In this document: positions 94-26,011 of the stretch, one piece after another
Numbering within the stretch: position 1 is the stretch's first letter
How the letters are laid out: each line of letters starts with the position of its first letter
Source of the DNA: a bacterium
Lineage (GTDB): Bacteria; Patescibacteriota; Minisyncoccia; Phycocordibacterales; UBA9973
Length of the DNA: 64,000 bases
Direction: 5' to 3'
NCBI GenBank assembly: GCA_021824345.1
Contig: JAKAKW010000002.1
Location: 22,552-86,551 of the forward strand
Made by a program: the position numbers and the translations under genes
Notes under the pieces: generated by a model
What the model was told of the DNA's origin: nothing
Databases searched by the model: none
What the model saw: only the letters and a program-made list of their open reading frames with translations

Positions 94-915
94 TCATATT
101 GGAGAATAAGGATCAAAATCGTCATCCCTTCGGTTAGAATTGAACCGCTCGTTGAATATCTGTTCGCGGATCTTGTCTATGATAATATCTTTTGCAATTT
201 GAATATCAGTCATTCTCAGCTCTTCTAAAAAGTCATCAAGCAGATCGAACGATACAACATCAATTAGAAAATATTTGTTTATTTGGCGATCCTTTTTTAG
301 GTAAGAATAATCAACTCCTAGTTGAAAATTGTTTTCAATCTTTTCATACTTATTTGTGCTATCTTCGGCAACTCTGTATGTTCTTTTAAAAGAATCGAGA
401 ATGATTATAGGATAATCTAGACGATAGCTTTCATAATTGTAATTTTCAAGCGATATTAAGCTGTGAAGCGATCCATTCGTTCCATCATAAAAAATGTCTA
501 CATTTCCAGATTTGGCATTTAGTTTAGCAACAGGCTCATTCTTCAGATAGTGATGAGGTCTTGCTTTTAATTCTTCTGTTACCATAAGCTCGGTGTCTGC
601 ACAGTCTCTCATTATTTGATTTTCTTGAATAAGGTCTTTCGTTTTTTTCATATCCTTTTCCACGAACCACAATACATTGTCATTGTCTACATACTTACAC
701 TCTGCAAAAAGCCGGACAGAAAGTCTCTGACCGCTGTCGCCAATAGAAAATTTCTTTTGCGCCAATATATCAATTTCACGAGGTTTATCTGTAACAGGAT
801 CCGCATAATATTGTCCAACAGTTGCTTCCCACCCAAGAGACTCCAAATGTTTGGCAACCTTTAAATGAAAGCCGTTGCCACTTTTTTCTATTATTTTTAG
901 GATAGAATCATTCAT
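94..915 (-). CDS. hypothetical protein with a PD-(D/E)xK-like nuclease motif; candidate restriction endonuclease partner of the adjacent Vsr/MTase
   Basis: 273-aa ORF. Motif PREIDILAQ...RLFAECKYV matches the D...(D/E)xK spacing. Lies directly downstream of vsr on the same strand with a 13-bp gap. Confidence 0.4.
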   Translation of the reverse strand: MNDSILKIIEKSGNGFHLKVAKHLESLGWEATVGQYYADPVTDKPREIDILAQKKFSIGDSGQRLSVRLFAECKYVDNDNVLWFVEKDMKKTKDLIQENQIMRDCADTELMVTEELKARPHHYLKNEPVAKLNAKSGNVDIFYDGTNGSLHSLISLENYNYESYRLDYPIIILDSFKRTYRVAEDSTNKYEKIENNFQLGVDYSYLKKDRQINKYFLIDVVSFDLLDDFLEELRMTDIQIAKDIIIDKIREQIFNERFNSNRRDDDFDPYSPI

Positions 916-928
916 TTTTCTAGTTTAC

Positions 929-1372
929 TCATTCATCCCTTAGAAAATCTTCAATATTATTTAATGTGTTTCTTTCTGTATTTAATAAATCCCTTCCCCA
1001 AACTCTTAAAACTTTCCATCCCTCTCTCCGTAATTTTGCCCTGTTTCTTTTGTCTCGCGCAATATTGCCCTCTATCTTTTCCCGCCAATACTTCTTCGGC
1101 AACCTGTTCTTTTCTTTTGCAAAATTCCTTCCGTGCCAGAAATCTCCGTCTATGAATATGGCTATCTTCTTGCGGGGCAGGGCGATATCAGGGGTTCCAG
1201 GGGCTTTTTTGTAATGCTTTTGGAAATAAATCTTCCTTTTCCTGAGCTCCTTGAATGCTATAAGCTCCGGCCTTGTGTTTTTAGAGCGTATTTTCGACAT
1301 TATTTCGCTCCGCTTCTTTTTTGTGAATACGTCCATCGTTTTTCTGTCTTGCCAATGGCTATTGCCTTGCAT
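929..1372 (-). CDS. vsr: very short patch repair (Vsr) endonuclease
   Basis: 147 aa. Carries the Vsr hallmark FIDGDFWHG plus RSKNTRPE and LRREGWKVLRVW motifs. Transcribed divergently from a C5-MTase. Confidence 0.85.
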   Translation of the reverse strand: MQGNSHWQDRKTMDVFTKKKRSEIMSKIRSKNTRPELIAFKELRKRKIYFQKHYKKAPGTPDIALPRKKIAIFIDGDFWHGRNFAKEKNRLPKKYWREKIEGNIARDKRNRAKLRREGWKVLRVWGRDLLNTERNTLNNIEDFLRDE

Positions 1373-1386
1373 TTCGGTTTTTGTTC

Positions 1387-1407
1387 GGTATAATAGGATT
1401 ATATACC
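1387..1407. promoter_or_regulatory. imperfect palindrome GGTATAATAGGATTATATACC whose two halves each contain a TATAAT-like -10 box for the divergent vsr and MTase promoters; candidate operator for the LexA-like domain
   Basis: Read directly from the 55-bp divergent intergenic region. TATAAT at 1389-1394 on the plus strand and ATTATA at 1398-1403 (TATAAT on the minus strand). ATG of the MTase at 1427. Confidence 0.3.
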
Positions 1408-1426
1408 TAATATTTTTTATCGCAAT

Positions 1427-3010
1427 ATGGAAACGTTAACAAAAAAGCAGAAGCAGGTTCTTGATTTCATAAACGCATACAGGGCGGAGAACGGCATTTC
1501 GCCCACGATCGAGGAAATAAGAAAAGGCCTGAAGCTGAAGGCGGTTTCTACCGTGCACGAGCACGTGAATGCCTTGAAGGAGAAAGGATACATATCCGGC
1601 GAGGAAAATTCTGCAAGAAGCCTTGTTCCTAAAAAGGCGATAAAGACGATAGTTGAAATCCCCATAGTGGGAAGAATAGCCGCGGGCGACCCTATTGAGG
1701 CTATTGAAGACTTTCAGGACACTGTTTCCATATCCGATCCTTCAATAAAAAGCCACAAAGATTATTACGCCTTGAAAGTGGCAGGCGATAGCATGATAGA
1801 AGAGGGAATATTCGACGGAGATATAGTGGTGATAAAAAAGCAGTCTTCGGCGGAAAACGGGCAGACGGTTGTTGCTATCATTGATGATGAAAAAGCCACC
1901 TTGAAGAAGCTATACAGGGAAAAAGACCGATTCAGGCTGCAGCCGGCAAATTCAAGGATGAAGCCTCTTTTTAGGACGGAAGTAGAGGTAAGGGGAGTTG
2001 TGGCGCAAATAATCAGAAACTTGGCTAATGCGCAAAATACCGCAGAGGAGAAAAAGGTGACAACAAGCAAATTCAGGACAATTGATTTATTCGCGGGGAT
2101 AGGAGGAATAAGGATAGGGTTCGAGAAGGCAGGGTTTAATACCGTCTTTGCAAACGATTTCGATGAACAGTGCAAGAAAACCTATGATTTGAATTTTCCT
2201 ACTTCTAAATTGGTGGTGGAAGACATAAGAAAACTAGGAATAGAGGATCTACCTGATTTTGATTTTCTCTTGGGCGGGTTTCCTTGCCAGGCCTTTTCCA
2301 TAGCGGGGTATAGGCAGGGCTTCAAGGATGAAAAGGGAAGAGGAAACTTGTTTTTTGATATTGCCAGGATAATTGAAGCGCGGAAGCCTGAAGGGTTCCT
2401 GTTGGAAAACGTTAAGAATCTTAAAAGCCACGACAATGGCAAGACTTTCAGAGTGATAGAAAAAACCTTGAAAGAATTGGGATATCACATACAAACAAAA
2501 GTTTTGAATACCATGGACTACGGCAATGTTCCGCAGAATAGGGAAAGGATATACATAGTCGGGTTCAAGGATAAAAATCGCGCGGATAGGTTTTCCTTCC
2601 CCGAGCCCGTAAAGCTTAGGAGGAAAGTCACCCATTTATTGGATAAGAAAGTTCCAGAAAAATATTACTATAACGGCAAGCCTCTTTATGAAAAGCTCAA
2701 GCATTTTGTAAAAGAAGAGGGAAAAGTATATCAGTGGAGGCGCCAGTATGTGAGAGAAAATAAGAGCGGAGTATGTCCGACCTTGACGGCGAATATGGGA
2801 ATGGGGGGGCATAATGTGCCCATTATCAAAGACAAGAAAGGAATACGGAAGCTTACTCCCCGGGAGTGCGCCCGCATACAGGGATTCTCCGATGATTACA
2901 AGCTTCCCGAAATTGCGGATTCCGCGCTATATAAGCAATTAGGGAATTCTGTCAGCGTGCCTGTTATAGAAGCAGTAGCCAAGCAGATGAAGAAAGTTCT
3001 AAACGGCTAA
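1427..3010 (+). CDS. fusion protein: full-length LexA (winged-helix domain, Ala-Gly cleavage site, S24 Ser/Lys dyad) fused to a C5-cytosine DNA methyltransferase
   Basis: N-terminal 205 aa aligns with LexA: VGRIAAGDP (cleavage site), GDSM (Ser), KKLYR (Lys), VVAQIIRN. C-terminal domain carries MTase motifs I (DLFAGIGG), IV (GFPCQAFS), VI (ENVKNL) and X (QLGNSVSVPV). Confidence 0.85.
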   Translation: METLTKKQKQVLDFINAYRAENGISPTIEEIRKGLKLKAVSTVHEHVNALKEKGYISGEENSARSLVPKKAIKTIVEIPIVGRIAAGDPIEAIEDFQDTVSISDPSIKSHKDYYALKVAGDSMIEEGIFDGDIVVIKKQSSAENGQTVVAIIDDEKATLKKLYREKDRFRLQPANSRMKPLFRTEVEVRGVVAQIIRNLANAQNTAEEKKVTTSKFRTIDLFAGIGGIRIGFEKAGFNTVFANDFDEQCKKTYDLNFPTSKLVVEDIRKLGIEDLPDFDFLLGGFPCQAFSIAGYRQGFKDEKGRGNLFFDIARIIEARKPEGFLLENVKNLKSHDNGKTFRVIEKTLKELGYHIQTKVLNTMDYGNVPQNRERIYIVGFKDKNRADRFSFPEPVKLRRKVTHLLDKKVPEKYYYNGKPLYEKLKHFVKEEGKVYQWRRQYVRENKSGVCPTLTANMGMGGHNVPIIKDKKGIRKLTPRECARIQGFSDDYKLPEIADSALYKQLGNSVSVPVIEAVAKQMKKVLNG

Positions 3011-3571
3011 GCCTTTCATTTTTTTGAACAGGTTTTCCATATCCTTTAAATCATCCCAATATACGAACATGTTATCATTATTAAAAGACATGCCTTTAAA
3101 GTTTTTACCCGCGGCTAGTTCCTGAAAATCATTCCTAGAGGCCCAGCCCCTTCTTTCAACTCGTATGCCGTTAAGAGCCGGAAAATCAGAAAATATTTCT
3201 TCTCCCCGGCCTCCCAAGCTCCTGAAAAATCTCTGCCCGGTGCTGGATTTTTTCCAATGCACTTTATAGCCTATGAATAATCCCGCTTGCCTGTCTCCCT
3301 CGAATTCATTTTTTGAAATCAGCATGAAATACTGCACGTCTTTTACCTGTATCTTGGTTTTTGGGGCAAAATAAGAACCTCCGGAAAACTTTATTTTCTT
3401 TACATCCTGCCCCTCATCTGTGTTTGAGGTTCCGATATAAAAATCCCTGTTCAGTTCTATACCTATACCATGTTTCTCGCAGTCCATCTTAAAGGCCACT
3501 TCATTTAAAAGGCCTTTAGTAATATCCATCATGGCCTCTATATCATATCTTGTTTTTCCGCTTGAATACAA
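2999..3571 (-). CDS. hypothetical protein
   Basis: 190-aa ORF with no recognisable motifs. Overlaps the MTase 3' end by 12 nt on the opposite strand. Confidence 0.35.
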   Translation of the reverse strand: MYSSGKTRYDIEAMMDITKGLLNEVAFKMDCEKHGIGIELNRDFYIGTSNTDEGQDVKKIKFSGGSYFAPKTKIQVKDVQYFMLISKNEFEGDRQAGLFIGYKVHWKKSSTGQRFFRSLGGRGEEIFSDFPALNGIRVERRGWASRNDFQELAAGKNFKGMSFNNDNMFVYWDDLKDMENLFKKMKGLAV

Positions 3572-3618
3572 TGTAATAAAATTTTCATTTACCGCTTTCT
3601 TTGCCCAATTAAATTCCC

Positions 3619-4164
3619 CTATAATGCTTCCAGGGGGATTAAAATAGAGTTATCAAGGACAGATTGGCAATATTCCGAAATTTTTTTAAAACTAGTAAAT
3701 CCGTTTTTAATCGATCCGTTTCCCTGTGCGAGATTCTCAATCTTATTTGAGGAATTGGCTGATCCGCCTGCTACTCTCCTAAATTGGCCCAAGGATACGC
3801 TTTCATATCCGTAAGGTCCAAGTATTTCATTTACAATTTCAAATACTCTAGGCAGGGCGTTTTCTTCTTCAAAGAAAATGTTTGTGTCTTCCTTTATGCC
3901 CCGGTTTGCTATGTTATCAGGGATTTTTATTTTCTCATTATTCATTTGTCCCCGGGCCAGGAGATTATTATAACTATCCTGTCGGACGGGGAATATATGG
4001 GGAGTTTGCATAACAAGCTCCTTTTTATCAGGGAAATGAGATAGGATAGGGGCGCTTTTAATTATTGTTTTAATTATTGCGGTTCCAAGGCATTGAACCA
4101 TTACGATACCTTGACATATAGCATAAAATGCTGTATTATATTTATAATTTCTGATCGTTGACAA
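3619..4164 (-). CDS. hypothetical protein (doubtful; TTG start; overlaps small-peptide copy 1 on the opposite strand)
   Basis: 181-aa ORF. Its reading frame through the repeat element is not conserved in the other three copies (stop codon in copy 2). Confidence 0.2.
   Translation of the reverse strand: MSTIRNYKYNTAFYAICQGIVMVQCLGTAIIKTIIKSAPILSHFPDKKELVMQTPHIFPVRQDSYNNLLARGQMNNEKIKIPDNIANRGIKEDTNIFFEEENALPRVFEIVNEILGPYGYESVSLGQFRRVAGGSANSSNKIENLAQGNGSIKNGFTSFKKISEYCQSVLDNSILIPLEAL
3946..4044 (+). CDS. small ORF family member 1 (32 aa: LSPGQEIIITILSDGEYMGSLHNKLLFIREMR)
   Basis: One of four paralogous copies. Substitutions between copies fall mainly at third codon positions in this frame. TTG start. 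Confidence 0.45.
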   Translation: MSPGQEIIITILSDGEYMGSLHNKLLFIREMR

Positions 4165-4264: not shown

Positions 4265-5056
4265 ATGGAAAAAAATATCAAAGTGTTCGCTTTAGGAAGC
4301 GAAAATGATACTGTATTACTTGCCTTGAAACAGGCACTTTCTATAACCGGCATAACTTTCATTAAGGACGTTGTAGAATCCGATCTAGTGGTTTCAACAT
4401 CAATTCACGACGTTGGCAGGATATATAATCCTGAGAAAAACTACGCTGTTGTCTCGATGGGGGAAAAGAAAACTGCTACATTACCTCGTAATGTAGAAAT
4501 TTTCAACGGCCCGCCTAATCTTCTTGAAATTCTGAAATATATTTCTTCAATTGAGGTCTCTCAAGAAGAAGAAATACAAAAAGCAGAATTACTTCCTGAT
4601 GCAAAAAAGATTCTTGTTGTTGACGATACTCTTAGGCATCGAAATAGCGCAAAGGATCTATTAAAAGGTCATATTTTGACAATAGTTGATGGATACGAAC
4701 TGGCGCTTGACGCTCTTTCGTCGCAGAAGTTTGATGTCGTTCTTACAGATCTTAAACTTCCCATGAGCTCTTCCATACTTTCCCCGAACGTATTTAAATG
4801 GGGTGAGCTGGAAAATTATGGAGTGTTTATCATGTTAGAGGCTGCAAGGGTTGGTGTAAAGCACATAGCAATTGTCACTGACCTAAATCATCATCTTGAT
4901 CCTTTTTCCGCCGCTTTTGATCACTTTTCTCAGTATTTGTTTAATATTAACGGCTCGGATGCAGTCATGATTCATGCCAACTTGGTTGATAACAAAAAAG
5001 GAGAGACGGTAAAAGATTGGGGAGAAGCACTATCACGGGTTATGTCTGCTGAATAA
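4265..5056 (+). CDS. REC (CheY-like receiver) domain protein, no recognised output domain
   Basis: KKILVVDD...FDVVLTDLKLP receiver motifs in the C-terminal two thirds. Good AGGAG ribosome-binding site. Confidence 0.5.
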   Translation: MEKNIKVFALGSENDTVLLALKQALSITGITFIKDVVESDLVVSTSIHDVGRIYNPEKNYAVVSMGEKKTATLPRNVEIFNGPPNLLEILKYISSIEVSQEEEIQKAELLPDAKKILVVDDTLRHRNSAKDLLKGHILTIVDGYELALDALSSQKFDVVLTDLKLPMSSSILSPNVFKWGELENYGVFIMLEAARVGVKHIAIVTDLNHHLDPFSAAFDHFSQYLFNINGSDAVMIHANLVDNKKGETVKDWGEALSRVMSAE

Positions 5057-5093
5057 AGTGACTTGTTAAATAACTATTTTAGGAGGAACAGAC

Positions 5094-6221
5094 GTGAAAA
5101 GACAACTCAAAAAATTCCAACTAGAAGGTTTTCCATCCAAGAAAGAAATCATTAAAGCAGAAAAAGAAATCTTTCCATTAGTCTTATCTCCTTCCGTGAG
5201 TGCGCTCTGTAATCTGAGGTGTATATACTGTTATACTCGTGCTGGAAAAAAATTACCCGGAGAATTAGATTTTGCAGATCATGCGAAAGCAATCAATGAA
5301 TTTACTGAGCTTAATAGGCACAACAAATACATGATTATTGCAATGATGGGGGAAACTTTTTTGGATAAAAGTCTTTATAATGTAAAGGGAAAAAATATTG
5401 TTGATCCTATTACAAAAAAGAACTTTGTATCCAAGTTTCCCATTATAGATTATGCAAATAGATGCGGTATCAAGGTGGTCTTTTTCACAAACACTACCGT
5501 AATAAATAAAAAGATAGCCGAAGAACTAAAGGGTAAAAATGTTTCCATCATAGGTAAACTTAACACACTCAATCCTAAATTACAGGAAGAAATGACGGGC
5601 GGAAAAGGATTCTTTGTTGAAGAAGAATGGGTAGACTACGAATATTTGGTTGGAGGCAAGAAAAAAAAGATAAAAATCCCGAAAGGTCTTAATGCTTTGA
5701 TTGAAGCAGGATTTAACAAAATCAACGAAAGAGGCAATACAAGTTTAGGAGTTGATATAATCCTTACTGAAAAAAATTACAAGGATGTTCCTAAGGTTGT
5801 AGAATTTTGTCTAGAGAATTTTATTCATCCTGTTTTAGATACAATGCTTCCTATAGGATCAGCGGCAGAAAATTATTTTGAGCTGAAACTAAAAACGGAA
5901 ACAAACAGATGGCTATACAAAAGATTGCTTCAGCTGCTAGGTTCAAATTTTGCCGAGGCGGAATTTACCGGCAATCCATGTTCAACTTTTCGCGCCGGCA
6001 TTGCCTATGATAATTTCGGTAATGTGCGAATGTGTTGCGGAGGTGAAGCTGACGGTATAGGCAATATCAAAAGGGATAGCCTTAAGGATATTTATCAAAA
6101 AATGATTAGATACAAGGGGAATTTCCTGTCTAATTTAAGAGAAAATAAACTTGGCAATGACGTATTTCCTGAATGTCCAGTAGCAAATTATTTTCGAAAA
6201 GAATTAGAGAAAAGTATCTAA
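5094..6221 (+). CDS. radical SAM enzyme with a C-terminal Cys-rich SPASM/twitch-like domain
   Basis: CNLRCIYCY is a CxxxCxxC radical SAM motif near the N-terminus. The C-terminal segment NPCS...MCCGG...ECP carries auxiliary-cluster cysteines. Confidence 0.75.
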   Translation: MKRQLKKFQLEGFPSKKEIIKAEKEIFPLVLSPSVSALCNLRCIYCYTRAGKKLPGELDFADHAKAINEFTELNRHNKYMIIAMMGETFLDKSLYNVKGKNIVDPITKKNFVSKFPIIDYANRCGIKVVFFTNTTVINKKIAEELKGKNVSIIGKLNTLNPKLQEEMTGGKGFFVEEEWVDYEYLVGGKKKKIKIPKGLNALIEAGFNKINERGNTSLGVDIILTEKNYKDVPKVVEFCLENFIHPVLDTMLPIGSAAENYFELKLKTETNRWLYKRLLQLLGSNFAEAEFTGNPCSTFRAGIAYDNFGNVRMCCGGEADGIGNIKRDSLKDIYQKMIRYKGNFLSNLRENKLGNDVFPECPVANYFRKELEKSI

Positions 6222-6239
6222 TTATATTAACTTCTTGAA

Positions 6240-6270
6240 GGCCGGACTGGTAAACAGTCTGGCCTTTTAT
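6240..6270 (+). terminator. rho-independent terminator hairpin GGCCGGACTG-gtaaa-CAGTCTGGCC followed by TTTT
   Basis: Seen directly downstream of the radical SAM gene stop codon. Confidence 0.6.
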
Positions 6271-6343
6271 ATATCTTATCTTGGAGGCGGTTCGATTCCT
6301 GTCTGGTCAAAACCCCTTGCTATTGTTAGCTTAGAGAAAATCC

Positions 6344-6448
6344 GTGTCCCCGGCTCAGGAGATTATTATAACCATCCTATCGGATGGGGAATATATGGGA
6401 AGTTTGTATAATAAACTGTTGTTAATAAAGGAAATGACAGCAATCTGA
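6344..6448 (+). CDS. small ORF family member 2 (34 aa: VSPAQEIIITILSDGEYMGSLYNKLLLIKEMTAI)
   Basis: GTG start preceded by the conserved upstream leader ttgttagcttagagaaaatcc shared with copy 3. Confidence 0.45.
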   Translation: MSPAQEIIITILSDGEYMGSLYNKLLLIKEMTAI

Positions 6449-6494
6449 AAAAGATTAGTCTAAGGCTGTAAGATAGCTGTATAATAATAGAGAG

Positions 6495-7277
6495 ATGAAA
6501 ACAGCAATGCCACAAAAAGTAAAAAAAGTACTTGAAGAACTTTCAAATTTTTTTCAAGAAGTTCTAGGGAGAAATTTGGTTGGAATATATTTACACGGCT
6601 CATTAGCTATGGGGTGTTTTAATCCGGCTTCAAGCGATATAGATATTATTGCAGTTATAAAAGGCAAATTATCTTTACAGGCGAAGAATAAATTGCAGGC
6701 CGGAATTAGATTATCATCAAAAAAGTATCCACAGAACGAGTTTGAGATAAGCGTAGTGAAACAAGATGTATTGCGTAAGTTTAAATATCCTACGCCTTTT
6801 GAATTTCATTTTTCAAAATCATCTAAAAATGTAAGTGCCAAAAACAATACGGGTTACGATAATGACTTGGTTGCCCATTTTGCCATGGTTAAAAAGAGAG
6901 GACTCTGTTTATATGGAAAACCAATTAGGTCAATTTTTCCCAACATACCCAAAAAGTATTTTCTTAAGTCTATAGCGCAGGATGCCAAATGGAGTGCGGA
7001 AAATGTGCGCAAGGCAAAAGAGAAAGGAAAATGTCCTGTACCGACTTATGCCGTATTGAACTTTTGCCGGGCCATTGCTTTCATCAGAAGTAATGAGTTC
7101 TTTTCAAAGAAGGAAGGCGGTGAATGGGGTCTAAAGCATCTACCGAAGAAATATGCGCCAATAATAAAAGAGGCGTTAAAAAAATACAGGAAAAGAAATT
7201 CCGCAAAGACGGTTGATTCCGAACTATTGAAACAGTTTAGCGAATATTCTTGGAATGTAATAAAGAAATATTACTAG
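6495..7277 (+). CDS. AadA/ANT(3'')(9)-like nucleotidyltransferase (NTase fold plus DUF4111-like C-terminal domain)
   Basis: GIYLHGSLAMGCFNPASSDIDIIAV fits the GS...DxD NTase motif. C-terminal LPKKYAPIIKEALKKY resembles the AadA C-terminus. About 260 aa, as in AadA. Confidence 0.6.
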   Translation: MKTAMPQKVKKVLEELSNFFQEVLGRNLVGIYLHGSLAMGCFNPASSDIDIIAVIKGKLSLQAKNKLQAGIRLSSKKYPQNEFEISVVKQDVLRKFKYPTPFEFHFSKSSKNVSAKNNTGYDNDLVAHFAMVKKRGLCLYGKPIRSIFPNIPKKYFLKSIAQDAKWSAENVRKAKEKGKCPVPTYAVLNFCRAIAFIRSNEFFSKKEGGEWGLKHLPKKYAPIIKEALKKYRKRNSAKTVDSELLKQFSEYSWNVIKKYY

Positions 7278-8379: not shown

Positions 8380-9468
8380 TCATACTGCTTGTTGGCTACC
8401 TTTTATTTTTTCAAACAAAGACCGTAGAAAGTTTAAATACATTTCTAATAATTTTTTATGAATATATTGAAAATCTTCTTTCAAATAAGATTCTGATAAT
8501 TTATTCTCCTTTAATACTTTTGAAAGTTTTTCCTCTGACTGAGGATGTGCGGCAATCCTTATTACTATATTATTCAAGGTCCTTAGCCCGTATAAATCTT
8601 CTCCCACCTTTATTTTTTTGGATAGAAGGTATAGATGCAATAAATTTATACTTCCAGAAAGTTCATTTAACCCATTTATTTCTTTTCTTGCCTGATCTAA
8701 AGAAAATCCATGTTTTGAGAGATCCTCAGCATTTAGATCCTGGATGAACACTCTCAAATCCATGCAACGCCCCATTAATTCTGCTAATTTAGTCGGGCCC
8801 TCAATCTGCGAAATTATTCGTTCAGAGTCTGGAAATAAAGTAAATTTAAATCGATTATCTTCCACAGCTAACAAATTTATTTTTTTTCTTAATTCTGAAA
8901 TCTCTTTTACAATTTCAGTATTGTTGTATTTTTTTTCCTGTTCTTCTTCTTTCTCAATTTCTTTTCTCTTTATATTTTTTGAATTATTCTCTATAAGTTC
9001 TTGCGCACGATCAGAACCTTCCTTTGAAATTTTCTCTTTAATTTTTTCTATATTAGAGCCTTTCCATTTTAAAATTTCTTTTACGAATATAATCTCTGAG
9101 CTTTTACCCTTTATACTTTCGAAATTTTTTGAATAATATTCAAGCTGGTCTTTTGGATTTTCTCTAAGAAGATATTGTAACGATAGAACTCTTATGTCGC
9201 GTCTTACATTTTCGTTTTCAAATATTTCCTTCAAAAGAAAAACAATTTTGTTTAAGGATTTTGTTCTTAACATATATCCTAACAATGTGGTAATAATAGA
9301 TTCATTGGGGTCTGACGAATTCAATTCTTTTAGAGTCAAAGTGAATACTCTATCTGAAATGAAGTGTTCTTCCAAATTGTTTTCATTTAGAAACTCCACA
9401 GCATAAGAAAAATTAATGTCCCTTGTCTCTTGTTTTGAAAGGATTTCGCGGAAAGCCAAGCAGAGCAA
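8380..9468 (-). CDS. hypothetical protein, Lys/Glu-rich coiled-coil
   Basis: 362-aa ORF, AT-rich, no recognised motifs. Confidence 0.35.
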   Translation of the reverse strand: MLCLAFREILSKQETRDINFSYAVEFLNENNLEEHFISDRVFTLTLKELNSSDPNESIITTLLGYMLRTKSLNKIVFLLKEIFENENVRRDIRVLSLQYLLRENPKDQLEYYSKNFESIKGKSSEIIFVKEILKWKGSNIEKIKEKISKEGSDRAQELIENNSKNIKRKEIEKEEEQEKKYNNTEIVKEISELRKKINLLAVEDNRFKFTLFPDSERIISQIEGPTKLAELMGRCMDLRVFIQDLNAEDLSKHGFSLDQARKEINGLNELSGSINLLHLYLLSKKIKVGEDLYGLRTLNNIVIRIAAHPQSEEKLSKVLKENKLSESYLKEDFQYIHKKLLEMYLNFLRSLFEKIKGSQQAV

Positions 9469-9623
9469 TCAAAGTACGAGGTCAGCTGCGGCATCGCAAC
9501 CCCCAACCTGACTCAAGCGGAGAAGAAAGTTGAGAATTCTAGCCAATAAAATTGTAATTACCTACGCAATTTCAAAAAGGGAATACCAATCTAATAATAT
9601 TGATTCAAGACAATCACAAAACT

Positions 9624-11255
9624 TTATTCCATGATTTGGCCATCCCCGTCGTCAAGTTTGAATAAAAATTTCTGATTTTTTTTATCGAATGTAACGACCG
9701 GAAGGAGAACTTCCTCGAAGGTTGTTTTTTTATCTGCCATGAGTTCCCCGCTCAAAATTTTTGGTTTTATATCCTTGTAAAGAAATTCGATCATCTTTTT
9801 TCTTTCCTTACCTACTATACTTACTTCAGTCCCGTTAACCTTAAATCCAATGATATACAAATATACCTTCAAGACTGAAGGGAAAAATCCTTTTACATTA
9901 GACATAAAATCACCATTTATTTTTTCCCAGATTAGACCTATGATGGTTTCTGATAGTTTTTCAAATCCAGAAGTAAGGGAATGGAGTGGAATCGTCTCTC
10001 CCACAGTTTCCATTGCTAATATTCTTATTTTCCCATTGTATTCTTCCTTTACCTGGGCTAGGGATTCAATAAAACCACAAACAGTTTTTGCATAGGCAAA
10101 ATTTATGCTTGAACGGAATTCGTTGTCTTTTTTAACTTCCGTTTCATATATAGAGGCCTGTTTCCTCTTTAATGCTTCTTTATATTCTCGTATATAAGTA
10201 TGACCAAGAAAAAAACTTATTGTCTGGAGCCGAGATACAGCTTCTTTATGTTTGTTTTTTTCTTTACTTGAAAAAGCAAGTGACTGCGAGTAATCATTTA
10301 GTTTATCCAGTCCATTACAGATCTCTCTTCTCATTTCTACTGGACAATTATTTTCCCAATATCCTTTGATAGCATATTCTAAAGATTTTAAATAAACTGC
10401 CAAATATTTTTCATGTAGTCTGTCAAATTTACAGAAACTATAATCATTTCCGAATACACAAAAATTGTCTAGAAAATATGGTTCTGAAAATATTGCCTCA
10501 AAGGCATTAAGGGCTAGGGAAGTACCCCTATAATCAAGTTGACTATAAAAATATGAACTCTCTTCTCTAAACAATAATTCGATAATTCTGTCTAGTCCTA
10601 ATTGAGTATGGGCAGATGTGATTCTATATTTCTTGAATGTAGCTAGCAAATATAAAATAAAATCTATCCTCCCGGTTGCAATATATCTTGCTACTCTCTC
10701 TTCGCTTAAAATTACAGTTGTGACGGCATTGGCATAAATAGCATATTTTTCCTCATCGGAAAGGATATAATCCTTATCTCTTTGAAAAGGTATTGAGCTG
10801 ATACCAGCCAGTGCCTTCGTTATATTTTCAAGGTTGGCTCCCAGAATATCAATACAGACATCGATGTTATCAATTTTAGGTTTAGTTATTTCTCGTAGAA
10901 TAATGTTATAAAACTTTTCTGCACGCCTCTTGTTGAATAGCCCCTTCTTTCTTTTTCCGAAAAGTAGCAAACTTAATGGGGCAAAAATAAAACATAAGTA
11001 TCCTAAGAACTGCCAAAGAAATGTATTGTTCAAAAAAGAAAGGGGTAAACTAAAGAATTTTTGTTGGATAGTGATAGCAATGGCTATAGATACAAGCCCC
11101 CCAACACCCATGTACCATATTAAGTTTCTTTGCCATGAATCTCTAATTTTCAAAACAATGTCCCAAGATTTGTCTTTGAGTTGAAATACGGCAAAAATTA
11201 AACCGAAGGCGGCTACGGCCTCACCTAAAGAAAAATGTATTATGTTATCTGCCAT
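9624..11255 (-). CDS. membrane protein (N-terminal TM helices plus large cytoplasmic domain), last gene of the type I R-M operon
   Basis: Hydrophobic N-terminal 100 aa. Starts 43 bp downstream of the hsdR stop on the same strand. Confidence 0.45.
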   Translation of the reverse strand: MADNIIHFSLGEAVAAFGLIFAVFQLKDKSWDIVLKIRDSWQRNLIWYMGVGGLVSIAIAITIQQKFFSLPLSFLNNTFLWQFLGYLCFIFAPLSLLLFGKRKKGLFNKRRAEKFYNIILREITKPKIDNIDVCIDILGANLENITKALAGISSIPFQRDKDYILSDEEKYAIYANAVTTVILSEERVARYIATGRIDFILYLLATFKKYRITSAHTQLGLDRIIELLFREESSYFYSQLDYRGTSLALNAFEAIFSEPYFLDNFCVFGNDYSFCKFDRLHEKYLAVYLKSLEYAIKGYWENNCPVEMRREICNGLDKLNDYSQSLAFSSKEKNKHKEAVSRLQTISFFLGHTYIREYKEALKRKQASIYETEVKKDNEFRSSINFAYAKTVCGFIESLAQVKEEYNGKIRILAMETVGETIPLHSLTSGFEKLSETIIGLIWEKINGDFMSNVKGFFPSVLKVYLYIIGFKVNGTEVSIVGKERKKMIEFLYKDIKPKILSGELMADKKTTFEEVLLPVVTFDKKNQKFLFKLDDGDGQIME

Positions 11256-11298
11256 TTCTTATAATAAACTCAACTAGAAATATCCTAATAACGAAATG

Positions 11299-13755
11299 TT
11301 AATTCACTAAAGCATATACCTTTTCTTTTAAACCCAGCACGAACCCGAAAAGCCCTCCGGGGTACTTGGCCTGGATGGCTTCCTTTTTTGCGTTCATATT
11401 AGGCAATAGGAATGCTTGCGACGATAGATTTTCCTCACCACTGGTTTTGTACTTCTCCATAATGTCACGAATGGCTTCGCCGATTTCCTTGCCATATTGG
11501 TCAAGTGTTTGAGTATTTGCGCGCATGAATTGTTTAACTCGGTCCTCACGAGTCAGAAGGGGAGCGTCAAATGCTATATGCGCTATAACGTCGAAAGCGT
11601 CACTATCCTCTAAGTTCTCTATGGATTTGATTAGTGGAATGTTCACGTGTTTAGTTTCTAGGTCGGTTATGAGTAGTTCGCGTTTCTCTGGGTCAAGCCA
11701 TATTTTACGGAGTTCATCAGTGGTGTGTACCATTTCGGTTATCCTTTCACCGGAATACTTGCGATACTCTGCTTTTGAGAGCTTGATGCCGTCGAATTCT
11801 ATCTCAACCTCCTCATCAATACTCACCTCAATGCCTTTGACTATAATTTTCTTAGGAGTACCCTTGAGCGGCTTCAGGCGGAATTCATAGGGTGTTTCTG
11901 CTTCTGATTCATGCGGTTCAAGACGCTTGCTCAAATTTTTGTAATCGGCGTGCTCAATTTGTACAGACACTTCACCATTTGTCGGCAAACCGAATATCCT
12001 AAATAGACCGTCGTTGTCGGTTTTACCGATCTTCTCCCAGCGCCCGAGCTTAACTTTCACCACAGCGCTTGCCACATGCTCTTCTGTCTTGTTATTGACC
12101 ACTACACCTGTGATTAGTTTATCAAAAGGCGGTATCGGTTCTTCTGGGGTCGTAGGAGGCACTGGCGGTTGAGGAGCTACGTCCCACTCGTCCAGGAGCC
12201 GGGTAGCGTTTGTAAAATCAATAACGCGGAAGAAACCCTTACCTTCAGAAAGACGAGAACCTCGTCCTAATATCTGTTTAAACAGCACCCGTGAAGCTAT
12301 AGGACGCATAAAGACGATATTTTGTACGTGGGGGATGTCTACCCCAGTAGAAAGCAAATCTACTGTTGTTGCAACGACTGGTAAGGTACGTTCTTTGTCT
12401 CGAAAGGCAGTTAAGTCATCTTTGTCCTCAGCTACAATACGGGTAGCGTAGTCCTCGCGTCCCTTTAGTTCGTTTAATTTATCTTGTACCGCCTGTGCGT
12501 GTGCCATATCAACACAGAAAACGATAGTTTTTCCATAAGGGTTTGTTTCGTCAATCAGCTCAACCACCTTTTTTGCCAGCAGACCTATTTGCTCGGGAAT
12601 AGTGACGGCGCGTTCGTATTCTGATGGTTCGTAGAAATCTTTAATATCTTCTGGTTCAACTTCATCGTCGTATATAATTTCTTCTGCTGCGGCGACGGAG
12701 AGCCCTTTACGGTACAGATTCGTAGTGACCTTGTAGATTTTGTACGGTACGAGATAGCCGTCTTCAATAGCTTGCCCTAGGGAATACTGGAATACCGGTT
12801 CACCGAAGTATTCGTATACGTCAATATTGTCTTCCCGGCGTGGAGTTGCTGTCATGCCGAAGTGTACAGCAGAAGTGAAGTGATCAAGAATTTCTCCCCA
12901 GTCACCAAATCGCGAGCGGTGACATTCATCAATGACAATCAGATCAAAAAAGTCAGCTGGTATCTGCTTGTAGAGATCATTCGCGAAGAGCGTCTGGTAT
13001 GTTGAGAAATAAACGTCCCGGTTGCGATTGAAGTCACCACCTTCTATCTTTGCGCGGCCTTCGCCAAATGGTTCAAAATCTCGGCTATAGGCATCATCGC
13101 GCAGAATTATACGGTCACAAAGAAAAAGGATACGATGCATCGTTTTTGATTTCATCAATTTCCAAACAATTTGAAAGGCAGTGAATGTTTTACCAGTGCC
13201 GGTGGCCATTGTAAGAAGTGTTGTACGATTTCCTTTGATAATGTTTCTAACTACTGCATTGATCGCGGTTTCTTGATATGAACGCGGGCGCTTGGTACCA
13301 CTAATGTGAAGCGGATATTCGAGTGCAGACAACTTAGCATTTTCTAACCCTTTCCATTCTATGTATGCTTTATACATATCTTCAGGCGATAGGAAAGAAG
13401 AAACTGACTCTGGCGCTTTATTTGTGCGCCGATCATATAGGTATGAGGACTTGCCGTTAGATATATAGGCAAATGGTACGTCAAGACGCTCAGCATAATT
13501 TTGCACCTGTTTAATATGTTTCATCAAGTCCTCGTCCTCTGCTTTTGCTTCAAGCACTGCTACTGTAACTTGGTTGAACTGGACCACATAATCAGCAAAG
13601 AGCGAAGTCGGAAGACGTTTATATTCTTCTCCTTCAACGTAAAAACGATCGTCAGAAATAGGGTAGTTGCGAAGAATATATTCCTCTTTCCACCCTGCCT
13701 CGTGTATTTTGGGATCTATTATTTTGACTCTTGTGTCGTCCTCTGAAAAGGTCAT
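11299..13755 (-). CDS. hsdR: type I restriction enzyme R subunit (HsdR) with a C-terminal extension
   Basis: N-terminal PD-(D/E)xK (ADYVV...LEAKA). Helicase motifs TGTGKT and DECH. C-terminal region has a transthyretin/CarbopepD-reg-like segment (TDNDGLFRIFGLPTNGEVSVQ) and an EcoEI_R_C-like tail. Confidence 0.85.
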   Translation of the reverse strand: MTFSEDDTRVKIIDPKIHEAGWKEEYILRNYPISDDRFYVEGEEYKRLPTSLFADYVVQFNQVTVAVLEAKAEDEDLMKHIKQVQNYAERLDVPFAYISNGKSSYLYDRRTNKAPESVSSFLSPEDMYKAYIEWKGLENAKLSALEYPLHISGTKRPRSYQETAINAVVRNIIKGNRTTLLTMATGTGKTFTAFQIVWKLMKSKTMHRILFLCDRIILRDDAYSRDFEPFGEGRAKIEGGDFNRNRDVYFSTYQTLFANDLYKQIPADFFDLIVIDECHRSRFGDWGEILDHFTSAVHFGMTATPRREDNIDVYEYFGEPVFQYSLGQAIEDGYLVPYKIYKVTTNLYRKGLSVAAAEEIIYDDEVEPEDIKDFYEPSEYERAVTIPEQIGLLAKKVVELIDETNPYGKTIVFCVDMAHAQAVQDKLNELKGREDYATRIVAEDKDDLTAFRDKERTLPVVATTVDLLSTGVDIPHVQNIVFMRPIASRVLFKQILGRGSRLSEGKGFFRVIDFTNATRLLDEWDVAPQPPVPPTTPEEPIPPFDKLITGVVVNNKTEEHVASAVVKVKLGRWEKIGKTDNDGLFRIFGLPTNGEVSVQIEHADYKNLSKRLEPHESEAETPYEFRLKPLKGTPKKIIVKGIEVSIDEEVEIEFDGIKLSKAEYRKYSGERITEMVHTTDELRKIWLDPEKRELLITDLETKHVNIPLIKSIENLEDSDAFDVIAHIAFDAPLLTREDRVKQFMRANTQTLDQYGKEIGEAIRDIMEKYKTSGEENLSSQAFLLPNMNAKKEAIQAKYPGGLFGFVLGLKEKVYALVN

Positions 13756-13775
13756 ATTTTTATAAATTGCTATTT

Positions 13776-14456
13776 CTATCCTTCGCTTGGTTTTTTCTTT
13801 GATTCAGCGAGTGCTTTTAATTTTTCTGAACGAGTGCGCCGGTTTTCTCGATCAACATACCAGTCATCCACTAATTGTTCAATTAGGCCAATTAGAAGCT
13901 GGGCTTCTTCTGGCTCAACTTCAATGATGACGTTTATATCTTTTTCCATGTGTGCTCCAATATTCCCTACGCTTCTCACAGCATCAATACTAGTCCATGT
14001 GTCCGGATCAACTTTTTCTTCCAGAGCGTCAATCTCATCTTTCAAACGTGCCATTTTAATGTTCCAGAAGTCGCGTATCATCCCCTGGAGACATCGTCGT
14101 GCAAGCGTAGCCGATGCCTTTGGGCTTAGATCACGTATACGGCACGCTTCGTAGTAATTTTCTTGTATAGGTTTCGGTATATACTCTGGAAGTACTTTTG
14201 CCTCTGACTCCGGGAGTAAGCGCCACGTCTTTAGAGCTGCAGATTTTTTCCATTCACCATATTGCCAATAGGTACCGGTAAGCTCTGCAACAAGTGTTAG
14301 CTGTTGGCATTCTTTGTTAGGGCAAGTGACAGCAGAAATTCCGAAGCCAATATCCCCAAGGGTAGGTTTGGATATATTAATCTTATACCACATCGAATCT
14401 CGATTGGGATCAGTGATTGTTGTATGTCTTCCGCAAAATGGGCAAGTGTAGTTCAT
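13776..14456 (-). CDS. DUF4145-like protein with an N-terminal zinc ribbon, common in type I R-M loci
   Basis: CPFCG...CPNKEC zinc ribbon. Helical C-terminal domain with ARRCLQGMIRD. Confidence 0.5.
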   Translation of the reverse strand: MNYTCPFCGRHTTITDPNRDSMWYKINISKPTLGDIGFGISAVTCPNKECQQLTLVAELTGTYWQYGEWKKSAALKTWRLLPESEAKVLPEYIPKPIQENYYEACRIRDLSPKASATLARRCLQGMIRDFWNIKMARLKDEIDALEEKVDPDTWTSIDAVRSVGNIGAHMEKDINVIIEVEPEEAQLLIGLIEQLVDDWYVDRENRRTRSEKLKALAESKKKPSEG

Positions 14457-14467
14457 GAATAAATTTA

Positions 14468-16735
14468 TTATTTAATAAATGCTTGGCCTAGCACTGATGG
14501 ACGAAACCTAGCAAAATACTTTGCTTGTTTTGAAAACAATTCCCCTAACTCCTTGGACATGTCAAACATCTTGTCCAGAGTGTTTGCAATATACTTTTGT
14601 TTTTCAACGTCAAGTTTTCCATCCTTAAATGGAATTGGTATCTCAACTTTTCCAAGATTAGTGCGGCTAATTCTCTTTCGTGAAGAACCTGTGACCATTT
14701 GGTATACCTGAGATCGTGCATCATCTGAGTTTAGGAAGTAGTTAATGTAACGTGGGTCATAATCTTGTCCCAAGCGGACGATAGTACAATCAACCGCTGT
14801 GAGCATACGATGCCCTGTTTTTGGTACGATACATGATCGTCCGACCGGGTCAGGGAGTCGAGATACAAGAATATCTCCAGGCAAAATCTCTGTACAGTGT
14901 AAGCGCTGAAAAGTTTGCTCATTTACAAAACGCTTAGTTTCCTTATCTCGAAAGTCAATCACTCCTATGTTTCCGGTCTGTACCAGCCAATACCCTTGAG
15001 AAGATTGATCTTTACTCTCAATCCAGTTGCCGTCGTTGAAGAATGTACAAATGTCTGCAAGTGCAAAGCGTTCAACATCAGTATTGGAAAATGTTCTTTC
15101 TAATTCACTCTTAAGTGATGCTAATATTAATTTAATTTCTTTCTGCTTATCCTCTATTTTTATAATGATTTCAGCAGGCGGTAAGAGTACTTCATTCTCA
15201 ACACTACTAGGGTTCTTGGGTGAAATATCCCAGCCGTGCTCCTTTATGGTATCCACTGAAACGATCCACGATGTGTTAGATACCTCGCGACGTTTCCATT
15301 TCTCGAATATATCTTGTAAGTGCTCATCCTGTACCGTCTTCTTTTTCGTAAATTTACCTTGTACTTCGCCGTACCATATTTCCTTTGTCGCGCCTGTTTT
15401 CTCAAAGAAGACAAGGTTCGTTTTTACGCCCGCGCCCATCTGTGAGAATGTACCTTGCGGAAGTGAAATTATAGCGGAAACATTGAATTTTGTTAGAAGT
15501 TCTTCACGAATACGAGCCGTTGCGCCACCTCCGAACATAATGTTTCCTTCAGGTAAAATAATGCCACAGCGCCCTCCATTTTTAAGGCGTTTCATCACAT
15601 ATTGCAACGCAAGACCTTCAGTTGCCCCTATTTGGATAGGATAGTTGTTTTGTACTGCTTTTGATTCTTCCGCACCGAACGGTGGATTGGTAAGAATTAC
15701 ATCAACTTTCTCGCTTTCCGGCATATTATGCACGTCTTCCATGAATGTGTTGGTGCGTGTAAGGTTTGGAACGAGTATGTGATGGAGAATAAGGTTCATC
15801 GTACCTATGAGAAACGGTAGCGGTTTCTTTTCCTGCCCATATAGGGTGGAAGTTTGGAGAGTATTCCATGCACGCACGTCTTTCGCAGAGTTCTCGAACA
15901 TGTGGTTAAAACTCTCAACGAGGAAACCGCCAGAGCCAACAAATGGGTCCAGAACTGTTTCGCCTAACTTTGGGTTGACGATGCTTACCATAAGGCGTAT
16001 AAGCGGTCTTGGACTATAAAACTCTCCGGACCAGCCGCCCTCGCTACCCATCGCCTGCAGTATTTCTTCGTATACCTGTGAGAGCAGGTTTGTGTCTTGA
16101 AAATGATGCTTCTCTATTTTATCTAGCACATCGATAACATCCAACAAGTTGTGAGCAGAACGGACACGATTGCCCGGCAGTTCGCGAAAAATCTCTCCGA
16201 TTTTATCTCGGCGTGGATCTCCTTTCAGTGCTTGAAGATAAGGGAAGAGTTTTTGGTTTACAAAATGCATTAATTCATCCTTATCTTTCCAATCTTTCTT
16301 CGCCCATGCTGACCACTGGTACTCTGCATCGATGACCGGCTTGTACTTACGGCCTTCTGCCTCCTCGAGTTCTTTTAGTTGCGTCTCAACGCCTTCAAAT
16401 ATTTTTAGGAAGAGGATCCACGAGAACTGCTCGATATAATCCTTTGCCCCTACACCATCGTCACGACGAAGAATATCGCAAACATGCTTAATGTCCGCCT
16501 TTGTTAAACTCTCACGTTTAGAAACCATTTCTTTCTCTACTTTATGCGCCATCTCTGGGATTTTACCTTCAACGAATGTTTTTAGATCGCTTGTGGAAAT
16601 GCGCCATGTCCCCCCTACCTTCTTCGCAGATAGTTTTTTATTGTGAATGTAACGGAAAGCAGTCCGCTCACTCACGTGGAGCATATCTGCAACTTCTTCC
16701 AAGGTATAAAGGCGATCAGATGTATCTTTTGTCAT
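14468..16735 (-). CDS. hsdM: type I R-M HsdM N6-adenine methyltransferase fused to a single HsdS target-recognition domain; N-terminal excisionase/MerR-like HTH
   Basis: Motif I DPFVGSGGFL and motif IV NPPFG. C-terminal Methylase_S-like TRD. N-terminal LYTLEEVADMLHVSERTAFRYI HTH. Start probably MTKDTS at 16735; the ORF is open up to 16795. Confidence 0.8.
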   Translation of the reverse strand: MTKDTSDRLYTLEEVADMLHVSERTAFRYIHNKKLSAKKVGGTWRISTSDLKTFVEGKIPEMAHKVEKEMVSKRESLTKADIKHVCDILRRDDGVGAKDYIEQFSWILFLKIFEGVETQLKELEEAEGRKYKPVIDAEYQWSAWAKKDWKDKDELMHFVNQKLFPYLQALKGDPRRDKIGEIFRELPGNRVRSAHNLLDVIDVLDKIEKHHFQDTNLLSQVYEEILQAMGSEGGWSGEFYSPRPLIRLMVSIVNPKLGETVLDPFVGSGGFLVESFNHMFENSAKDVRAWNTLQTSTLYGQEKKPLPFLIGTMNLILHHILVPNLTRTNTFMEDVHNMPESEKVDVILTNPPFGAEESKAVQNNYPIQIGATEGLALQYVMKRLKNGGRCGIILPEGNIMFGGGATARIREELLTKFNVSAIISLPQGTFSQMGAGVKTNLVFFEKTGATKEIWYGEVQGKFTKKKTVQDEHLQDIFEKWKRREVSNTSWIVSVDTIKEHGWDISPKNPSSVENEVLLPPAEIIIKIEDKQKEIKLILASLKSELERTFSNTDVERFALADICTFFNDGNWIESKDQSSQGYWLVQTGNIGVIDFRDKETKRFVNEQTFQRLHCTEILPGDILVSRLPDPVGRSCIVPKTGHRMLTAVDCTIVRLGQDYDPRYINYFLNSDDARSQVYQMVTGSSRKRISRTNLGKVEIPIPFKDGKLDVEKQKYIANTLDKMFDMSKELGELFSKQAKYFARFRPSVLGQAFIK

Positions 16736-16851
16736 GCTGGGTATGATAGTCCAAGATAAATATTTTGTCAAGTTTTGGCAAGTATTGTAATACACTTGCC
16801 ATTTTATGACAACTTTATATTTGACATGTTCCCGTCTTTTTATTTTCTAGA

Positions 16852-17342
16852 TCTCCCGCGCGCGTAGGAAAAATCCGATTTTATCCCAGTACTATTTTTG
16901 CTTTTCTACTTTGTTACTACTAGCTATTTCTTCATTTTACCCCTATTCGGATTGAATTTTGGTTTTCGGGCAGTTTTTTCAGGTAACCCGGGGGTATTTT
17001 TTCTTGCCCTGACAGCTCTAAGACGTTCCCGGCATTCCCTGAGTTTTTATTTTCCCTCACGCGCGCGAGAAAATCCAAATCTATCACAGTCATATTTTCA
17101 GGATTTTTCTTTGTTATCATTAGGTATTTTCCCATTCTACCCCAATTGTGATTGGCAGTGCCGTTTTTTGTCTCTTTTTGGACGAAATCTTTTTTAGTTG
17201 AGTTATAATTTATAGATCACCTCGCGCGCCCGCGTGCGTAGAATAGAAATTTATGAAAGAGCTATTTTTGTGTTTTACGTTGTAATTACTAGATATTTCT
17301 CGTTTTTTGCCTATTTCAATTGAATTCTTGCAATTAAAGAGC
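16852..17342. repeat. three degenerate direct repeats of about 150-200 bp, each beginning with a CGCGCG box in otherwise AT-rich DNA
   Basis: Units begin near 16855, 17060 and 17222 (cgcgcgcgtaggaaaaatcc / cacgcgcgcgagaaaatcc / cgcgcgcccgcgtgcgtagaatagaaa) and share downstream tracts such as ctatttttg...ttactactag. Confidence 0.5.
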
Positions 17343-18281: not shown

Positions 18282-18412
18282 ATGTTTGTTTGGCGTTCGG
18301 CGGAGCGTTTTATCCTGGAAAATTCTTTTTGGCCTCTCGACCTGTTTACTGCGGGAACTGGTCTAGGAAACAGCCCTATTTTCCAAAATACCCTTATTTA
18401 GCTTATATAATG

Positions 18413-18485
18413 TCCGCCCACTCGGGATCGAACCGAGGACCTTCTCCTTAAAAGGGAGCTGCTCTACCATCTGAGCTATGGGCGG
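18413..18485 (-). tRNA. tRNA-Lys (anticodon UUU)
   Basis: Cloverleaf folded by hand from the reverse complement: acceptor CCGCCCA/TGGGCGG, anticodon loop CUUUUAA, T-arm CTCGG-TTCGATC-CCGAG. No encoded CCA. Confidence 0.8.
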
Positions 18486-20931: not shown

Positions 20932-21011
20932 CCATTTATGATATCACTTTTTTGGTGTATATTGGGATGACGGAATCGTTCCGGCGGCTGTCGGGACGGA
21001 CAACAGGAACT

Positions 21012-26007: not shown

Positions 26008-26011
26008 ACAA

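Follow-up and report, generated by a model that had tools for sequence, protein, structure and literature searches.

The stretch of DNA considered here (hereafter, the window) comprises 64,000 nucleotides of contig JAKAKW010000002.1 (assembly GCA_021824345.1, positions 22,552 to 86,551), from a bacterium of the Patescibacteriota. At 1427..3010, on the plus strand, it carries an uninterrupted open reading frame (ORF) of 527 amino acids which, as judged from its residues, is a complete and catalytically intact LexA joined to a complete C5 methyltransferase. This LexA::C5-DNA-methyltransferase gene is flanked by a divergent vsr gene and by a convergent gene, the latter probably encoding its cognate restriction endonuclease. 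The present analysis concerns the composition of the fusion, the cassette in which it resides, and the way in which its LexA module may control its expression.

The N-terminal part of the fusion comprises a LexA winged helix-turn-helix (wHTH; amino acids 1-64, positions 1427-1618; Pfam LexA_DNA_bind, PF01726) and an S24 domain (amino acids 79-192; Pfam Peptidase_S24, PF00717). Amino acids 1-199 match the NCBIfam lexA equivalog model TIGR00498 (203 model positions) with 183 bits, against a cut-off of 111, and the first 198 residues align end to end with the LexA proteins of T. maritima and E. coli, both of solved structure. In the alignment to E. coli LexA, residues A84-G85, S119 and K156 of the latter correspond to the cleavage site Ala86-Gly87 (1682-1687) and to the catalytic dyad Ser122 (1790-1792) and Lys160 (1904-1906) of the fusion. 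A poorly conserved linker (amino acids 201-215) leads to an M.HhaI-like methyltransferase (amino acids 216-523, positions 2072-2995), which covers model PF00145 fully (1-324/324, E 6e-96) and obtains 345 bits with TIGR00675 (dcm). M.HhaI is the closest solved structure, to which residues 211-525 align over the full length with 215 bits. The motif set consists of motifs I (FxGxG), IV (PCQ, with the catalytic Cys287 at 2285-2287), VI (ENV), VIII (QxRxR) and X (GN), together with a variable target-recognition region. An initial annotation of the window had already read this ORF as a complete LexA followed by a C5 methyltransferase, and Pfam, NCBIfam and the structure alignments agree on both halves, the N-terminal part being recognized by the LexA and S24 profiles and the C-terminal part by the DNA_methylase profile.

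Among 41 close fusions (alignment A1), no variation is seen at the cleavage site, in the catalytic dyad or in the methyltransferase motifs; the invariant C5 motifs are F222-A-G-x-G-G, P286-C287-Q288, E327-N-V, Q370-N-R-E-R and G506-N507. For wider comparisons, 80 loci with the fusion were fetched, while operator counts cover 83 loci and the promoter alignment covers 76. Given mean column identities over the 80 loci of 0.80 for the DNA-binding domain, 0.80 for S24 and 0.88 for the methyltransferase (the linker having 0.57), all domains of the fusion are under strong constraint.

The fusion belongs to a large family. A protein search retrieved at least 120 protein clusters at 75-81% identity, all of about 525 amino acids and with the same three domains, from Parcubacteria, Kaiser-, Staskawicz- and Moranbacteria, and Paceibacterota, and a scan of one genome per species found the fusion at 70-80% identity in at least 530 species-level genomes, nearly all of them Patescibacteria. 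Its flanking genes vary in almost every one of the 80 loci, hence the fusion gene travels as a cassette. In seven loci a large serine recombinase adjoins it. The 86-kb Vogelbacteria contig CAIRHC010000009.1 has two such cassettes, one at each end (L017 and L057), which differ in their endonuclease partner (i.e., a member of the Bsp6I-like family in one case and of the unannotated family c16 in the other). The viral contigs of IMG/VR hold no LexA-fused copy and only unfused methyltransferases; an unfused relative on a viral contig is 65% identical over the methyltransferase domain. A prophage-repressor reading, or carriage by phages, was dropped in view of the lack of any fused copy in IMG/VR.

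The same fusion is named "transcriptional repressor LexA" by NCBI or "DNA (cytosine-5)-methyltransferase 1" by JGI (e.g., entries P0012, P0021, P0041 and P0089), and either name conceals half of the protein. The initial annotation had stated that a LexA module serving as controller was not something it recognized as described. In line with this, a full-text literature search, whose coverage did not extend to a 2017 study of the Patescibacteria SOS network that may report the box or the fusions, returned no description of a LexA-methyltransferase fusion. The family is thus, apparently, a large and undescribed class of mobile restriction-modification (R-M) systems in ultra-small bacteria of the candidate phyla radiation (CPR).

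That these are type II R-M systems is indicated by a convergent gene that almost always stands after LexA::M. In most of the 80 loci this convergent gene abuts or overlaps the methyltransferase stop, and it belongs to eight unrelated families, among which are the Pfam families RE_Bsp6I (28 loci, the largest), NgoFVII_C (8 loci) and PDDEXK_5 (8 loci). Beyond the convergent gene, a 73-amino-acid HTH_3 controller (C-protein) gene is found in 20 loci. Judged from gene order and family membership, the general layout is therefore a promoter and operator before LexA::M, a convergent endonuclease gene R, and an optional C gene upstream of R.

In the window, the probable cognate restriction endonuclease gene (2999..3945, minus strand) converges on the methyltransferase gene, with a 12-bp overlap at the 3' end of the latter. 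It is split into two ORFs on the minus strand (2999..3571 and 3619..4164) by a frameshift at about 3625-3627. Intact orthologues of 313-319 amino acids, in L027 and L048, are single ORFs that span both halves; relative to these, the window differs by a frameshift of one base, and three assemblies have the gene called in this same split form. Given the frameshift in the orthologous partner gene, the restriction gene looks inactivated, and the local system is probably an orphan methylase kept with Vsr.

Word avoidance suggests a target for the methyltransferase. In comparison with the other XYNY'X' words (16 in total), GCNGC is the most depleted in the window, with 156 occurrences observed and 311 expected (0.50). 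When the 80 loci are pooled, GCNGC is again the most depleted word, with a ratio of observed to expected of 0.57, and the depletion holds for every partner family (0.32-0.71). We take Bsp6I to cut GCNGC and NgoFVII to cut GCSGC, from the family descriptions and general knowledge. GCNGC is hence the probable target, as indicated by word avoidance together with the partner families.

The candidate control region lies immediately upstream of the fusion gene. The methyltransferase promoter (1367..1394, plus strand) has a -35 element TTGCAT (1367-1372), which fits three of six positions and was hence missed by an automated promoter scan, and a -10 element TATAAT (1389-1394); the layout TTGnnT, repeat, TATAAT, ATTGTAGC is conserved in the 76 aligned loci. 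The 16-nt spacer between the two elements is filled exactly by a direct repeat, TTCGG-N6-TTCGG, with an 11-bp period (1373..1388, plus strand), which is the probable operator of the LexA module. Of the 83 loci, 79 contain a single exact copy of the repeat at this position, and across about 820 kb of relatives there is only one repeat per locus. The 64-kb window has a single exact copy, and a search allowing one mismatch yielded 7 occurrences against 7.0 expected, which is the chance level; the six non-exact occurrences are not evidently associated with promoters, and the two that were checked lie inside coding sequence. A direct-repeat LexA box with the same 11-bp period, GTTC-N7-GTTC, is known in Alphaproteobacteria (PMC8565304). 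A Cheo-type box (GAAC-N4-GTTC) was also tried and rejected for the window, where 20 one-mismatch occurrences were found against 23.6 expected, none of them exact.

Three further lines of comparison point to the repeat as a binding site. In L065 (5926-5941), L079 and L086, the repeat is inverted and stands downstream of the -10 element (as CCGAAA or TCGAAA repeats), a position to be expected of a repressor site and not of a promoter element. Among standalone LexA proteins, the closest are those of Dojkabacteria/WS6, a CPR lineage, and three standalone lexA promoters of the Dojkabacteria type have TTCGG-N6-TACGG or TTCGG-N6-TTCGG directly before the -10 element. Lastly, residue 45 of the recognition helix, located between two histidines, tracks the sequence of the repeat: H-E/Q-H pairs with TTCGG (68 C5 loci, three other fusions and three standalone LexAs), H-Y-H or H-H-H pairs with TTCGA (three cases), and H-F-H pairs with TTCTA (one case). 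These pairs (E/Q with GG, Y/H with GA, F with TA) would amount to a small natural specificity code for the LexA-type wHTH. It is by such comparison that autoregulation through a LexA box in the fusion's own promoter is suggested.

The initial annotation had instead placed the operator at a palindrome (1387-1407) whose arms it took for two -10 boxes, and had proposed that a LexA dimer bound there represses both divergent transcripts, with the product of ORF 94..915 as a cognate nuclease released by an SOS response. The reading of the arms is borne out. The palindrome consists of the plus-strand -10 element and a minus-strand -10 element 3 bp apart, the latter being the right arm, and the divergent vsr promoter (1398..1425, minus strand) combines a -35 element TTGCGA (1425-1420), a spacer of 16 nt and a -10 element TATAAT (1403-1398), with a score of 10/12. 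A comparable minus-strand TTGnnn-N16-18-TAnnnT is found at the same position in 49 of the 76 loci, and a related inverted repeat, GTTATAAT-N3-ATTGTAGC, matches at least 5 of 8 positions in 60 of them. As an operator, however, the palindrome does poorly: it is the direct repeat that is conserved and that covaries with the recognition helix, and the standalone lexA promoters and several other fusions keep the repeat without the palindrome. Since these lack it, we take the palindrome to be a divergent promoter (driving vsr here) rather than a LexA site. Repression of both transcripts survives in altered form, given that a repressor adjoining the two -10 elements, rather than bound to the palindrome, would be expected to affect both. 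A protein on the direct repeat would occupy the spacer of the M promoter and lie shortly downstream of the minus-strand start, where it could hinder either transcript.

The nuclease half of that proposal meets a similar difficulty. ORF 94..915 (minus strand), which continues the operon downstream of vsr, encodes a protein of 273 amino acids for which a confident model (pLDDT, i.e., predicted local distance difference test, of 92) predicts a PD-(D/E)XK fold, and its residues D49, E72 and K74 are invariant. Searches in Pfam, NCBIfam and PADLOC gave no family match for it, and its family consists of 79 unannotated proteins from several phyla. It is followed by an overlapping ORF of 226 amino acids that runs off the left edge of the window (L001, 7991..8671). 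Neither ORF accompanies the fusion in any of the 80 loci, and a 66% homologue of the 273-amino-acid protein occurs in an unrelated gene context, whereas the probable restriction partner is the convergent gene. On this comparison, ORF 94..915 is local cargo and not a conserved part of the system. Taken as a whole, then, an SOS-controlled palindrome with 94..915 as its nuclease is hardly credible, despite the genuine -10-like boxes and the nuclease fold.

A perfect DnaA-box 9-mer, TGTGGATAA(C), was observed at a constant 22 +/-1 bp upstream of the operator in 46 of the 76 loci (L004-L083; e.g., L010 5920-5930). These 46 are among 63 exact copies in 822 kb of sequence, and there is none in the window. 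The 9-mer is also found beside the LexA-methyltransferase fusions of L084 and L087, and inverted in L065. It might provide DnaA-dependent timing of methylase expression, or be a site for another factor. The box was also considered as a cassette-end repeat and rejected, as a second direct copy beyond R is present in only three loci.

The operator also bears on whether the fusion is the organism's true, and perhaps only, global SOS repressor, commanding a repair regulon through the same repeat. The match to the lexA equivalog model would agree with such a role, as would an operator identical to that of standalone CPR lexA genes. Moreover, among the best matches the NCBI-named LexA proteins of Parcubacteria-type organisms are all fusions, the standalone ones being from Dojkabacteria/WS6, and a second S24 protein was not found in the 64-kb window. 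Against these points, a multi-gene regulon leaves no trace in the sequence searched: there is no second box in the 64-kb window, the promoter of the uvrB-uvrA-uvrC operon (20952..27432) included, and the single exact repeat of the window, with one-mismatch copies at chance level, is matched by one repeat per locus across about 820 kb of relatives. In addition, the gene moves as an R-M cassette and occurs with every methyltransferase class, two cassettes share one contig (L017 and L057), and L058 has an additional LexA-like gene. A global role is hence unlikely, and a repressor dedicated to its own cassette is preferred.

The range of these combinations became apparent when the LexA part alone (amino acids 1-205) was searched against 1.8 billion protein representatives. 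Its closest relatives, at 45-58% identity, are almost all long proteins with an N-terminal LexA. In 47 such representatives, the attached domain is N6_N4_Mtase in 29, Eco57I/N6_Mtase in 7, D12 (Dam-type) in 5 and C5 in 3, and the Ala-Gly, Ser and Lys residues are unchanged across all 47 (alignment A3). Six such loci, one of them from Omnitrophota, were inspected. Each of them has a promoter with the 11-bp-period repeat, as well as a convergent gene after the methyltransferase gene or genes, and in five the convergent gene belongs to a restriction-enzyme family: Alw26I type in L084, Tsp45I type with a C gene in L086, BsoBI type in L087, AccI type with a C gene in L088, and MwoI type in L089; that of L085 is an unannotated gene of 393 amino acids. 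The two functions also occur side by side without fusion: in L058 (1170..3368, minus strand), a LexA-like gene of 192 amino acids, whose product has VTAG, GDSM and the K of a TMKYF motif, is directly followed by an N6_N4-type methyltransferase gene of 524 amino acids, 2.7 kb from a fused C5 cassette on the same Nomurabacteria contig.

These observations admit a broader generalization, which we put forward tentatively and hold as possible rather than probable. LexA-methyltransferase fusions (C5, N4/N6 beta, gamma and Dam-type) would form a large undescribed class of damage-sensing R-M controllers in CPR bacteria and in some further phyla that lack cultivated members. Their self-cleavage, triggered by RecA, would close a loop between self-restriction breaks and methylation, the shared host LexA box would plug the cassettes into the SOS network, and the fusion would perhaps be the sole LexA where a standalone lexA is missing.

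The conservation of the protease matters for a simpler explanation, according to which the LexA module is a mere dimerizing autorepressor, like the N-terminal helix-turn-helix (HTH) of M.SsoII, and cleavage and DNA damage are irrelevant. Nothing more than the layout of operator and promoter would be needed for this, and autoregulating N-terminal DNA-binding domains are well known, going by the reference list of PMC3874152 (SsoII, Ecl18kI, EcoRII, ScrFIA). Yet the Ala-Gly, Ser and Lys residues are invariant in the 41 close fusions and in the 47 distant ones (about 40% identity), and conserved cleavage residues are not expected if the protease has no part to play, which weakens this explanation. 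We regard it as distinctly unlikely.

The reading we favor, with moderate confidence, is that the fusion is an autorepressed methylase of a mobile type II cassette, derepressed by RecA-stimulated self-cleavage. The fusion would dimerize through its S24 domain, bind the direct repeat and block RNA polymerase at the M promoter; in the window it would probably also obstruct the back-to-back vsr promoter, whose transcript must cross the repeat. Repression would keep the methylase low, and with it the load of C-to-T changes driven by 5-methylcytosine (5mC). Upon DNA damage, to which the endonuclease of the cassette may contribute by cutting under-methylated sites, RecA filaments on single-stranded DNA would stimulate the Ser122/Lys160 dyad to cut Ala86-Gly87. 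The DNA-binding domain would thereby be freed, the promoter derepressed, and the methylase (here also Vsr) raised, resulting in a feedback by which damage would lead to protection of the host chromosome. This circuit could also yield a burst of methylase upon entry of the cassette into a naive cell. The notion that a LexA stands in place of a C-protein or HTH controller, raised in the initial annotation, is plausible given the intact LexA on the methyltransferase.

The same cleavage could also have the reverse outcome, in which the cleaved S24-methyltransferase fragment is degraded, methylation drops, and a cell that is damaged or infected is killed by the partner endonuclease, in the manner of abortive infection or addiction. 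This outcome would agree with the fate of LexA in E. coli, where the two products of cleavage turn into protease substrates. R-M systems can, furthermore, behave as toxin-antitoxin-like addiction modules (PMC3874152). On the other hand, cleavage derepresses synthesis at the same time, the methyltransferase domain is intact after the cut, the sequence data show no degron, and in the window the endonuclease gene is broken while the fusion is intact. Killing by loss of methylation is therefore very unlikely.

Several points weigh against the favored reading of a damage-derepressed methylase. Binding, cleavage and induction are steps that we infer. No recA was found in the window or in any fetched locus, and RecA as the inducer is taken from general knowledge of CPR genomes. 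If the S24-methyltransferase fragment were degraded after cleavage, as in E. coli, methylation would be lowered. Only four cases with a repeat other than TTCGG underlie the covariation between recognition helix and operator. The proposed model gives no account of the conserved ATTGTAGC element, nor of the DnaA-box-like TGTGGATAAC of relatives. Lastly, the AlphaFold2 model of the full fusion, built with the 41 close homologues as input, is unusable (pLDDT of 64, and below 50 in the S24 region), and the packing of S24 against the methyltransferase is not derivable from it.

In comparison with known systems, the fusion resembles the SsoII-type methyltransferases (M.SsoII and M.Ecl18kI, with M.EcoRII, M.MspI and M.ScrFIA) in that an N-terminal DNA-binding domain represses the protein's own gene and affects a divergent promoter, which for the fusion is suggested by comparison; M.MspI too has an autoregulating N-terminal domain of this kind. 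The SsoII type, however, has a short HTH, no protease, a palindromic operator, and a divergent endonuclease gene that is activated by methyltransferase binding, whereas the fusion has a full LexA with S24, a direct-repeat operator, a convergent R often with its own C, and an implied damage input. By these sequence features it is similar in logic and is not a member of that family. With LexA itself (TIGR00498), as found in CPR/Dojkabacteria and in Alphaproteobacteria, it shares the domains, the catalytic residues and a box in its own promoter, nTTC-N7-nTTC with an 11-bp period. It differs in the attached methyltransferase of 310 amino acids and in its location in a mobile R-M cassette, and the sequence searched gave no sign of target promoters other than its own.

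R-M systems controlled by C proteins (PvuII, Esp1396I) likewise have a transcription factor within the cassette that times or balances M and R, and many relatives of the fusion also have an HTH_3 C gene before R. C proteins, however, are small separate activator-repressors of the XRE type acting on the C-R operon, whereas the regulator considered here is built covalently into M itself and would act on the promoter of M; to our knowledge, C proteins have no damage input. Immunity is coupled to a DNA-damage signal, as proposed for the fusion, in the control of CBASS (cyclic-oligonucleotide-based antiphage signaling systems) by CapH/CapP and in the ClpXP-dependent alleviation of type I restriction, where the coupling serves to restrain or tune damage to the cell itself, yet these use other parts (i.e., a protease and a repressor as separate proteins in the first case, and HsdR proteolysis in the second). 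We know of no case of a type II methyltransferase that is itself a self-cleaving repressor. Finally, the full C5 motif set is shared with C5 methyltransferases of the M.HhaI/M.Bsp6I type that are accompanied by Vsr, a companion which repairs 5mC deamination, and to these the fusion adds its N-terminal 215 residues.

The known solutions to the long-standing problem of self-protection in type II systems are C proteins, methylation-sensitive promoters and HTH-bearing methylases. If the favored reading is true, a self-cleaving LexA methylase would be a new answer to type II self-killing, with a direct input from DNA damage, comparable to type I restriction alleviation. The module is combinatorial, in that at least four classes of methyltransferase share this LexA and operator. 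CPR bacteria largely lack CRISPR and are hard to culture, and the abundance of the fusion in them suggests that it may represent a leading principle in the regulation of their immunity.

The vsr gene (929..1372, minus strand) encodes a very-short-patch T:G mismatch endonuclease, recognized by PF03852 (E 1.6e-22), by TIGR00632 (109.8 bits, against 97.85) and by PADLOC (Vsr). Its probable true start is at 1336 (MDVFTKKK), where homologues begin, and the intergenic region is then about 90 bp long. A divergent Vsr neighbor is present in 9-10 of the 80 loci, with a gap of 90-96 bp, so that by this distribution vsr is an optional accessory of the cassette. The pairing of methyltransferase and Vsr, for which the initial annotation had invoked a classical association, is thus real and divergent in the window and is not a constant one.

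Adjoining the cassette, positions 4265..7277 hold three genes, one for a protein that weakly resembles response regulators, one for a radical SAM protein weakly matched by PADLOC pVip, and one for a nucleotidyltransferase with a PADLOC PDC-S09 match; these may also serve in defence. At 8380..18485 there is a type I R-M-like set, with an HsdR-like gene (11299..13755), a DUF4145 gene (13776..14456) and an HsdM with an N-terminal HTH_17 (14468..16795); its neighbors are a gene for a tyrosine integrase (17334..18281) and one for a tRNA (18413..18485). An integrated defence island seems to make up the left third of the window; an attachment (att) repeat of the neighboring tRNA gene, of at least 12 nt, was searched within 27 kb leftward and not found. 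In the leader of the uvrBAC operon, a perfect inverted repeat, CGGAA-TCG-TTCCG, occurs at 20971..20983, where it is preceded by a -10-like TATATT and followed by the probable ATG (21013); it may be due to chance.

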